A DNA stretch of 64,000 nt, from assembly GCF_044324785.1 (NCBI RefSeq), contig NZ_CP172127.1. One strand, 5' to 3'. Origin of the DNA: Escherichia coli (GTDB lineage Bacteria; Pseudomonadota; Gammaproteobacteria; Enterobacterales; Enterobacteriaceae). The position numbers were made by a program, and so were the translations under genes. The notes beneath the pieces are model-generated. The model saw only the letters and a program-made list of their open reading frames with translations, did not search any database and was not told the DNA's origin. Each line of letters begins with the position of its first letter. Within the stretch, counting starts at the first letter, position 1. Below are positions 28,659 through 30,318 of this stretch, piece by piece.

Positions 28659-29309
28659 TTAATTTGATTTATTCGCATCCATCAGCGCTTTTAACTCCTC
28701 CGGCGTAAACGGTGGTTTGCGTCGGTGCAACATCGCATGGCAATTAGGGCACACAGGAAGCAAATCATTAACTGGATCCAGCTGGTAATCCTCTTTAATG
28801 GCTGAAAGCGGCACCAGGTGATGCACATGGATAAAGCCTTCAGCGATATCACCATAGATCTTCACCAGATCAACGCCGCATACGTTGCACTGGCATCCAT
28901 GATGTTCGACCGCTTTATCTCGGGCCTTTTTATCGCGTTCATAGCGGTTTACTGTCACCTTTATCGCCGCACCTTCAACGTATGTCTCCTGCGACGGCAA
29001 CTCATCCGGGAACAGAACGTCGGCTATGGGAGCCGCAGCGGCTTTATCCTGATGAATATGAAATCCCTGCTCTATGAGTAGTTTGACGCATTTAGATTTT
29101 ATTCCGCCGGTGAAATCCGCAGGGGTAAATTGCGTCCCCGTCATCAATGTCGCTGCGATGCCAGCAATCGCCTTCGAGGGGTAACGTCGGCCATGATATT
29201 CAATCTCATACAACCGCGCAGGCTGGAACTGATGAGTTTCTCCCGCATCCCATAAATGGATAGCTTCGATGATATACCGCCGCGGAAGATGATCGGGGAG
29301 TTTATTCAT
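28659..29309 (-). CDS. HNH endonuclease with an N-terminal domain of unknown specificity (candidate modification-dependent restriction enzyme)
   Basis: 216 aa; C-terminal His-Me finger with paired Cys (CQCNVCGVD...HVHHLVPLS...N...PVCPNCHAMLH); RBS aagga 7 nt upstream; 3' end is 7 bp from the nanS stop. Confidence 0.7.
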   Translation of the reverse strand: MNKLPDHLPRRYIIEAIHLWDAGETHQFQPARLYEIEYHGRRYPSKAIAGIAATLMTGTQFTPADFTGGIKSKCVKLLIEQGFHIHQDKAAAAPIADVLFPDELPSQETYVEGAAIKVTVNRYERDKKARDKAVEHHGCQCNVCGVDLVKIYGDIAEGFIHVHHLVPLSAIKEDYQLDPVNDLLPVCPNCHAMLHRRKPPFTPEELKALMDANKSN

Positions 29310-29445
29310 GGAGAATGTCCTTATACGTTCTCAGAACAGGCAGCAAAAAAACAAATGAGATCAAGGTAATATATCTTCAGTTGCAGGCTTGAACAGCAGA
29401 AAATTTGCGAGCATGATCGCAATTATTTCACTGCCAGGGATATCA

Positions 29446-30318
29446 ATGGCTTCCAGTAAATCGCTACAGCAGGCAATTGCCAATATAAAAATCTGGCACA
29501 AGGGTGAACAGCGCGCGCCGCATAAGCCATTGTTATTGCTATACGTATTAGCGGGATACCTGAATGGACATCCGCGCCTTTTCGATTATGGCTCGGAAAT
29601 CTACGAACCTCTGCACAGTTTACTGGAACGTTTTGGGCCACAGCGTTCACAGTACCGACCTGATATGCCGTTCTGGCGATTACAAGGCGACGGATTCTGG
29701 CAATTACACAATGCCGAGCTTTGCTCAACAGGAGGGAGCAGCCGACAACCACCAGTGAAGGAACTGACTGAATACCACGTTGCAGGCGGTTTCGATGAAC
29801 AGCACTACGCCCTGGTAACTGGCAATAAAAAACTCATCAATACTCTGGCGCAACAGATACTCGAAGCGCACTTCACCGAGAGTATTCAGGAAGAAATTGC
29901 TGACGAGCTGGGTTTTGATCTCCAGCAAATCCGTAAACAGCGCGACCCGTTATTTCGCAAAAATGTATTACGCGCTTATAAATACCAGTGCGCGATATGT
30001 GGCTTTAATATGCGCCACGACGACACCACCGTCGCGCTGGAAGCGGCGCATATAAAATGGAAACAGCACGGCGGTCCTTGTGAAATTCCTAATGGCCTGG
30101 CGCTTTGCGCAATTCACCATAAAGCCTTTGATAAAGGATCGATTGGCCTGGATGAAAATATGCGGGTACTGGTCTCGGATGCGGTAAACGGCGGAGGGAT
30201 CGTTGAGAAACTATTCTGGGATTTTGACGGGAAAACTATTGCGTTGCCACAGGTGCGTAAAAATTACCCTTTTGAGGGGTTTGTGGAGTGGCATCGAAAA
30301 GAGGTTTTTAGGGGGTGA
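29446..30318 (+). CDS. HNH endonuclease with N-terminal DNA-binding domain (possibly a phosphorothioate- or modification-sensing restriction enzyme)
   Basis: 291 aa from ATG 29446 (RBS aggga); C-terminal HNH (CAICGF...AAHIKW...N...CAIHHKAFD); N-terminal region with PHKPLLLLYVLAGY motif. Track ORF starts at a TTG at 29389. Confidence 0.65.
   Translation: MASSKSLQQAIANIKIWHKGEQRAPHKPLLLLYVLAGYLNGHPRLFDYGSEIYEPLHSLLERFGPQRSQYRPDMPFWRLQGDGFWQLHNAELCSTGGSSRQPPVKELTEYHVAGGFDEQHYALVTGNKKLINTLAQQILEAHFTESIQEEIADELGFDLQQIRKQRDPLFRKNVLRAYKYQCAICGFNMRHDDTTVALEAAHIKWKQHGGPCEIPNGLALCAIHHKAFDKGSIGLDENMRVLVSDAVNGGGIVEKLFWDFDGKTIALPQVRKNYPFEGFVEWHRKEVFRG

Follow-up and report, generated by a model that had tools for sequence, protein, structure and literature searches.

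The type IV enzyme ScoMcrA from Streptomyces coelicolor carries a head domain, a sulfur-binding domain (SBD), an SRA domain and an HNH nuclease domain, in that order, on one polypeptide (5ZMM/5ZMO), and an SBD homolog from Escherichia coli binds DNA containing phosphorothioate (PT) linkages of the Rp configuration and restricts transfer of a cluster of dnd genes (PMC6224610). The PT-dependent SBD-HNH enzyme EcoWI (type IIM/IV) recognises GpsAAC/GpsTTC, cleaves at N7/N6 with Mg2+ and is dimeric (Lutz et al. 2020, PMC7461809); supplied by itself from pACYC184, it abolished transformation by GpsAAC-modified dnd+ plasmids (PMC7461809). Other comparable enzymes are EcoKMcrA, encoded by the e14 prophage of E. 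coli K-12, in which a 5-methylcytosine-binding NEco domain precedes the HNH domain (6GHC), and the winged-helix (wH) enzymes of the wH-HNH, PUA-wH-HNH and NTD-wH-NTPase architectures, which sense N6-methyladenine (Helbrecht et al. 2024, PMC11037411). Here we compare these enzymes with the products of two divergent genes, termed A and B, in a 64,000-nt stretch of E. coli chromosome (contig NZ_CP172127.1), the whole of which is referred to as the window. The chromosomal gene order in the window is fimA-fimE-fimB-nanC-nanM-nanS, followed by a series of defence genes of which A and B are the nearest to nanS (Table 1).

We consider A and B to encode two independent single-polypeptide restriction endonucleases, neither of which would need a cognate methyltransferase, situated at the side of a variable defence region that faces nanS, and we put the probability of this reading at roughly 0.78. 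The two genes would be neighbours because the locus collects defence genes, and either would be readily lost. The original prediction, made from the DNA letters of the window, had described two divergent HNH nucleases with distinct N-terminal domains, adjoining an McrBC-like pair, with the end of the 216-aa gene 7 bp from the stop codon of nanS. This layout is confirmed: both genes are intact, each contains an HNH domain recognised by Pfam, the N-terminal domains are unrelated, genes of the McrBC family follow at 30381-33742, and the gap between the end of the nanS stop codon (28651) and the beginning of the gene A stop codon (28659) is exactly 7 bp. Pfam gave no match to either N-terminus, the copy used having no models for the head domain or the SBD. 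Of the candidate N-terminal domains that had been put forward (SRA, SBD, PUA/EVE or McrA-N-like), an SBD that aligns with the ScoMcrA SBD construct was found in the gene B product; the gene A product carries none of them and has a ScoMcrA-type head domain in their place.

Gene B and its likeness to EcoWI

A mechanical call of the gene B open reading frame (ORF) begins at a TTG codon at 29389 and gives 309 aa, whereas the ATG at 29446, which is preceded by an AGGGA ribosome-binding site and corresponds to the start assigned by the Prokaryotic Genome Annotation Pipeline (PGAP) in other E. coli genomes, gives 290 aa. The protein matches NCBIfam model NF045808 (phosphorothioated DNA-binding restriction endonuclease) with 436.9 bits against a cutoff of 180, the match extending over positions 2-284 of the 284-position profile; enzymes of this family are of the EcoWI/SprMcrA type. 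The crystal construct of the ScoMcrA SBD can be aligned (5zmo, E 6.3e-7) with the first ~140 residues of the protein, whose HNH domain belongs to PF13391 (HNH_2; E 1.3e-9, residues 201-255 in the numbering of the 309-aa ORF) and also matches the HNH domain of TagI (6ghs residues 197-276, E 2e-6). In the alignment to 5zmo/5zmm the motif PHKPLLLL falls on the ALHRP helix of ScoMcrA and MPFW on the YPFWA helix, the two helices that build the sulfur cavity, so that H26, K27, M74 and P75 of gene B correspond to H116, R117, Y164 and P165. The cavity therefore differs from that of ScoMcrA in having Lys in place of Arg and Met in place of Tyr. Most ScoMcrA homologs have Lys in place of R117, Y164 varies with sequence context and the Y164M substitution strengthens binding (Liu et al. 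2018, PMC6224610). As both Lys and Met are known to function here, the cavity of gene B is predicted to be of a functional type. The suggestion, made with low confidence in the original prediction, that PHKPLLLL marks an SBD-HNH enzyme is thus substantiated by the NF045808 score, the 5zmo alignment and the close identity to the protein that we take for EcoWI, described below.

Gene B is identical at 282 of 290 positions (97%) to WP_000168572.1 of E. coli W, a protein of the same length encoded at the same position beside nanS, and none of the eight substitutions lies within the cavity or the catalytic motifs. In the REBASE convention the name EcoWI denotes the first enzyme from E. coli W. The calculated mass of WP_000168572.1 is 33.31 kDa, and that published for EcoWI is ~33.3 kDa. 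From the enzyme name, the match in mass and the NCBIfam model we strongly infer that WP_000168572.1 is EcoWI. Gene B thus resembles EcoWI (PMC7461809) in its length, domain order, location, NF045808 membership and sequence; the two loci differ in that gene A is deleted in E. coli W and intact here.

It follows from the identity at the same locus that gene B would be an allele of EcoWI, whose biochemistry may be carried over to it: a GpsAAC/GpsTTC recognition site, cleavage at N7/N6, Mg2+ dependence and a dimeric state would be expected. In the proposed mechanism the SBD would take the Rp sulfur of the PT link into the hydrophobic cavity formed by H26, K27, M74 and P75, and the C-terminal HNH_2 domain of the homodimer would cleave a few bases off, as EcoWI does, so that DNA arriving from dnd+ donors would be destroyed. 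In the scanned large ORFs of the window, the only matches related to dnd were of a generic helicase kind and scored far below cutoff. Gene B is a known gene with a correct annotation: in RefSeq E. coli genomes PGAP labels it "phosphorothioated DNA-binding restriction endonuclease".

Gene A and the ScoMcrA-type head domain

The HNH part of gene A (PF01844, residues 141-197, E 1.8e-4) matches residues 199-269 of EcoKMcrA (6ghc, E 4e-4), and C141, C144, H163, H164, C187, C190, H191 and H195 are invariant among 62 homologs with identities down to 44%. In an AlphaFold model of the entire protein both domains are predicted well, with a disordered linker (residues 91-123) between them. Database homologs number 7,085, mostly of 205-230 aa with the same two domains; they carry precomputed PF26345 and PF01844 assignments and are named just "HNH endonuclease" or "McrA". 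The family is conserved along both domains, with invariant catalytic residues, from Enterobacteria to Shewanella and further. Gene A, itself intact, belongs to a large uncharacterised family whose members are probably type IV (modification-dependent) enzymes.

EcoKMcrA was considered as an identity for gene A and rejected, as no NEco domain was found and the HNH part alone matches 6ghc. In contrast to EcoKMcrA, gene A has a ScoMcrA head rather than the NEco domain, comprises 216 aa as opposed to 277 aa and is chromosomal rather than prophage-borne, and the gene A family has Asp182 where the HNH motif canonically has Asn.

The N-terminal 90 residues of gene A match the head of ScoMcrA as a single sequence (E 2.9e-5), and a profile built from 31 head domains matches ScoMcrA with an E-value of 2.5e-8, spanning 5zmm residues 4-93. 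The same profile finds 3,055 representatives of 50%-identity clusters, ranging from ~100 to >1,500 aa, in which the domain is N-terminal or internal. Among 64 long representatives the Pfam partners are HNH (25), HNH_2 (12), EVE (12), McrB-type AAA_5 (7), NOV_C (7), nSTAND3 (6) and DUF3427 (3), with SRA, AspBHI_N, McrB_N and Mrr_N found once each. Mainly because these partners form the domain vocabulary of modification-dependent restriction, the head domain is likely to be a DNA sensor of type IV restriction enzymes.

Neither a methyltransferase gene nor an immunity gene was found beside gene A, and only B recurs as its neighbour across genera. This solitary state suggests, by the reasoning applied to the wH-HNH enzymes (PMC11037411), that the target of gene A is absent from host DNA. 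Together with the defence-rich setting and the fusion partners of the head domain, it leads us to predict that gene A encodes a stand-alone type IV restriction endonuclease. Such an enzyme would be built from a head of ~90 residues, a flexible linker of ~30 residues and an McrA-like zinc-finger HNH domain, which is the plan of gene B made from other modules. The head would most likely bind DNA bearing a mark absent from the Dam- and Dcm-methylated genome of E. coli, and would tether an otherwise poorly specific HNH domain so that cleavage occurs close by. That the head domain is a previously unrecognised reader of DNA modification, and the gene A family a widespread type IV family of thousands of members with a new specificity, is a tentative proposal, which has a real chance of being right but a somewhat greater one of being wrong.

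Independence of the two genes and alternative readings

The occurrence of A and B was surveyed in 5,426 complete E. coli genomes. By megablast at a coverage of at least 80%, a measure that counts intact and frameshifted copies alike, the counts are 1,238 genomes for A, 1,706 for B and 325 for the whole A-spacer-B unit (roughly 900 genomes have A only and 1,400 have B only). Common states are an intact B accompanied by a 106-nt stump of A, and an intact A next to a B that is cut after ~144-150 nt (one example of each was confirmed in annotation). Gene A is frameshifted in strain MB50, both genes are degraded in E. coli 042, and E. coli W, from which A is deleted save for its last ~35 codons, is nevertheless the putative source of active EcoWI. 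Outside E. coli, A without B is found in Klebsiella pneumoniae ATCC 13883, Atlantibacter, Escherichia sp. ESNIH1, Pseudescherichia and the planctomycete Aeoliella.

Three Citrobacter species retain the divergent A-B pair. Its spacer in the window contains an 18-nt palindrome, TTGCGAGCATGATCGCAA (29405-29422), with a perfect 6-bp stem, which a terminator scan lists on both strands and which lies 24 nt upstream of the gene B ATG. The palindrome is conserved in the three Citrobacter loci with one loop change, and the rest of the spacer diverges. No consensus sigma-70 promoter was found when the 136-bp spacer was scanned, and the palindrome may be an operator or promoter element for gene B. A different arrangement is observed in Enterobacter sp. 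MGH 24 (L013 2318-3908) and Raoultella planticola (L022 5791-7354), where the EcoWI ortholog (79% and 76% identity over the SBD) has an Mrr_N (PF14338)-HNH gene 10-22 bp downstream of it and on the same strand. These genes resemble gene A in adjoining an EcoWI-type gene and in their linker and HNH domain (58% identity), and they differ from gene A in having Mrr_N in place of the head and in being in tandem downstream of B rather than divergent. The nuclease module is common to both kinds of gene, and its sensor domain has been exchanged. EcoWI-type genes therefore repeatedly have a second HNH gene at their side, and since the sensor domain and orientation of this second gene change, clustering and module shuffling among defence genes fit better than an obligate partnership.

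It could be argued that A and B form one two-component system, a ScoMcrA split in two that jointly senses and cuts phosphorothioated DNA, given that ScoMcrA has head and SBD in a single chain. Here the two domains are on separate proteins, each with its own HNH domain; neither protein contains an SRA domain, the HNH domains fall into different Pfam families, McrA-like PF01844 (A) and TagI-like PF13391 (B), with no real similarity (BLASTP aligns a single 42-residue pre-HNH segment at 24% identity), and the HNH domain of ScoMcrA is not close to either. No SBD was found among the 150 best head-domain proteins, in a single-sequence phmmer search of limited sensitivity. The retention of the divergent pair in E. 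coli and three Citrobacter species, with a palindrome in the common spacer, and the second HNH gene beside the Enterobacter and Raoultella orthologs of B also speak for cooperation, but they have to be set against the small number of genomes with both genes relative to those with A or B only, the presence of A without B in five other genera, the absence of A from E. coli W, and the finding that EcoWI is a homodimer that restricts dnd+ plasmids alone (PMC7461809). We therefore regard a joint system as highly unlikely. A and B as a single ScoMcrA system were rejected on the missing SRA domain, the two proteins with unrelated HNH subfamilies and their independent loss, and the two-component version on that independent loss and the autonomy of EcoWI.

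Different alternatives concern gene A by itself. That it is not modification-dependent, and is a nuclease of the repair or structure-specific kind, an HNH gene that is selfish or of homing type, or a decaying gene currently without function, is unlikely, although less remote than a joint system. The frequent deletion or frameshifting of gene A in E. coli would suit a decaying gene, but the strong full-length conservation with invariant catalytic residues, from Enterobacteria to Shewanella and beyond, would not. PADLOC models match gene A only partially and weakly, yet the gene lies within a defence-rich region; and the head domain, which is without a demonstrated ligand and has weak fold similarity to known DNA binders, is nevertheless repeatedly fused to EVE, SRA-like and McrB-type modules. 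The head domain was not found in 50,697 phage records, in which the HNH part alone gives weak matches, and this argues against a homing, packaging or terminase-associated HNH. An unregulated, non-specific HNH nuclease without an immunity gene would moreover be toxic, by the reasoning given in PMC11037411. It is also very improbable that gene A belongs to the wH-HNH class of N6-methyladenine-dependent enzymes (HhiV4I/SruGXI type), reading N6-methyladenine outside the GATC sites of Dam. The likeness lies in a small N-terminal helix-strand domain joined to HNH in ~220-280 aa, and in parallel PUA/EVE or McrB-type NTPase architectures: the reported wH-HNH (224-283 aa), PUA-wH-HNH and NTD-wH-NTPase enzymes have their counterparts in head-HNH, EVE + head + HNH and head + AAA_5. 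However, there is no detectable sequence similarity or strong structural similarity between these enzymes and the head domain, searches of the Protein Data Bank with the head profile and with a longer head + HNH_2 protein (P0140) return ScoMcrA alone, and a winged-helix reader of the DpnI/HhiV4I type was not found in gene A. E. coli is Dam+, so that specificity for G6mATC would be self-destructive and incompatible with the host; a reader of N6-methyladenine in a non-GATC context would be a minor possibility.

Two independent single-polypeptide enzymes remain the reading that we prefer, and several points weigh against it in addition to the coverage-based counting noted above. No accession or sequence for EcoWI is given in PMC7461809, its supplement or PMC9521924, and 8 residues distinguish the gene B allele from its counterpart in E. 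coli W. The head of ScoMcrA is small, flexibly attached and of unknown function according to its authors (2018, PMC6224610), and no characterised head-HNH enzyme was found in the literature, in which searches for the ScoMcrA head domain returned the 2018 paper only, and those for PF26345 and six RefSeq accessions of A and B returned nothing. The adjacency of A and B in both Escherichia and Citrobacter, with a conserved spacer palindrome, and the fusion of head and SBD in ScoMcrA make some functional or regulatory coupling between the two genes conceivable.

The nanS flank and the neighbouring defence genes

Table 1. Positions of genes A and B, their domains and the neighbouring genes in the window
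Feature	Coordinates	Strand	Remarks
nanS (sialate O-acetylesterase)	27671..28651	+	326 aa, intact; backbone gene bordering A/B; identified from ORF, 98% identity with K-12 nanS region and nanS annotation in other genomes
Gene A, head-HNH nuclease	28659..29309	-	216 aa, ATG start
Gene A McrA-like HNH, residues 125-216	28662..28937	-	CxxC...CxxC zinc finger; PF01844, 6ghc match, invariant ligands
Gene A head domain (ScoMcrA-type), residues 1-90	29040..29309	-	helix, two strands, two helices, strand; candidate DNA/modification sensor
A-B spacer, divergent, 136 bp	29310..29445	.	holds palindrome TTGCGAGCATGATCGCAA
Gene B, SBD-HNH, predicted PT-dependent restriction endonuclease, putative EcoWI ortholog	29446..30318	+	290 aa
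Gene B SBD, about residues 4-142 of 290	29455..29871	+	alignment to 5zmo/5zmm
Gene B HNH_2 catalytic domain	29989..30153	+	PF13391
McrC-family nuclease subunit	30381..31691	-	436 aa from ATG at 31691; neighbour, outside A/B pair
McrB-family AAA+ GTPase subunit	31688..33742	-	684 aa; neighbour, outside A/B pair
Type I restriction-modification system 1	M 35240-36796, S 36793-37962, R 38084-41200
Type I restriction-modification system 2	R 52060-55476, M 55540-57174, S 57171-58349		R subunit PRK11448/EcoAI-related
Dsr1, defence-associated sirtuin, full length	59098-62889	-	NF041818, 1670 bits, cutoff 1400

Scars of both genes are found in K-12 MG1655 between nanS and yjhR, where stretches corresponding to window positions 29281-29405 and 29466-29713 are retained at 85.6% and 90.7% identity. 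These scars lie at 8269-8626 of the MG1655 locus (L085), and the start of the small ORF ythB (8598-8696) overlaps their end. Because K-12 keeps scars of both genes, and the breakpoints lie within A or within B according to the strain, the A-B pair looks ancestral at the nanS flank, where it would have been eroded by the variable region and have decayed in alternative ways. The original prediction had placed the island junction within this cluster, an idea that the breakpoints inside A or B, depending on the strain, refine; the K-12 scars of both genes speak against the pair being island cargo with a clean junction. In three strains with a nanS pseudogene (L001 12171-12260, L002 29050-29139 and L084 5125-5214) PGAP calls a 29-aa "hypothetical protein" that abuts the gene A stop codon and lies over the 3' end of nanS. 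This call is probably an annotation artefact; nanS is intact in the window.

About 3.3 kb separate the A-B pair of strain C4 from a tRNA-Leu gene, presumably leuX. The region anchored at leuX is described as the defence hotspot of E. coli with the heaviest occupancy (#37), and in about 2% of isolates this region contains Dnd PT-modification genes (PMC12707154). No tRNA genes were found within the window, and leuX thus lies outside it; we infer that the window forms part of hotspot #37.

Beyond A and B the window encodes an McrBC-family pair, a DUF4942 gene, two type I restriction-modification systems and Dsr1. The two type I systems are separated by a stretch (41620-51574) with several ORFs of 200-340 aa; three of these ORFs were scanned against NCBIfam with no match. 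The McrC-family protein (PGAP name "McrC family protein") matches NF007277 below the equivalog cutoff (E 7.7e-31), and the McrB-family protein matches NF008457 below cutoff (E 9.5e-34) and Pfam AAA_5 at residues 433-522; its first ~200 residues have no significant Pfam match. The start of the McrC-family gene overlaps the stop of the McrB-family gene by 4 bp, and the pair may be assigned to McrBC at the family level only, as a predicted operon of an AAA+ GTPase and an McrC subunit. The G+C content of genes A and B is 49%, that of the McrC-family gene 40.7% and that of the McrBC-family pair ~40%, and in strains C4 and FDAARGOS_144 the HNH pair is present and the McrBC-family pair absent. As the pair differs from A and B in G+C content (40% as opposed to 49%), and A and B occur without it, the McrBC-family genes are a module separate from A and B. 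The original prediction had counted three or four modification-dependent nucleases here: experimental support exists only for relatives of gene B, and gene A and the McrBC-family pair are predicted to have such a function.

For the biology of this region gene B adds nothing new, since the enzyme of which it would be an allele has been characterised and already serves for mapping PT sites (EcoWI-seq). A and B have been lost reciprocally at a single locus, a small, clean case of turnover in a defence region. In gene A, the orphan ScoMcrA head appears as a mobile module, found in ~3,000 protein clusters with HNH, EVE, SRA-like or McrB-type partners, and acquires a putative role as a sensor. If the head is a new reader, the natural E. 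coli strains with A only, B only or both would serve to find its target. Should a ligand for the head domain be found, the tools available for detecting DNA modifications would gain a reader domain, and the barrier that limits DNA exchange would be partly explained for roughly a quarter of E. coli strains.

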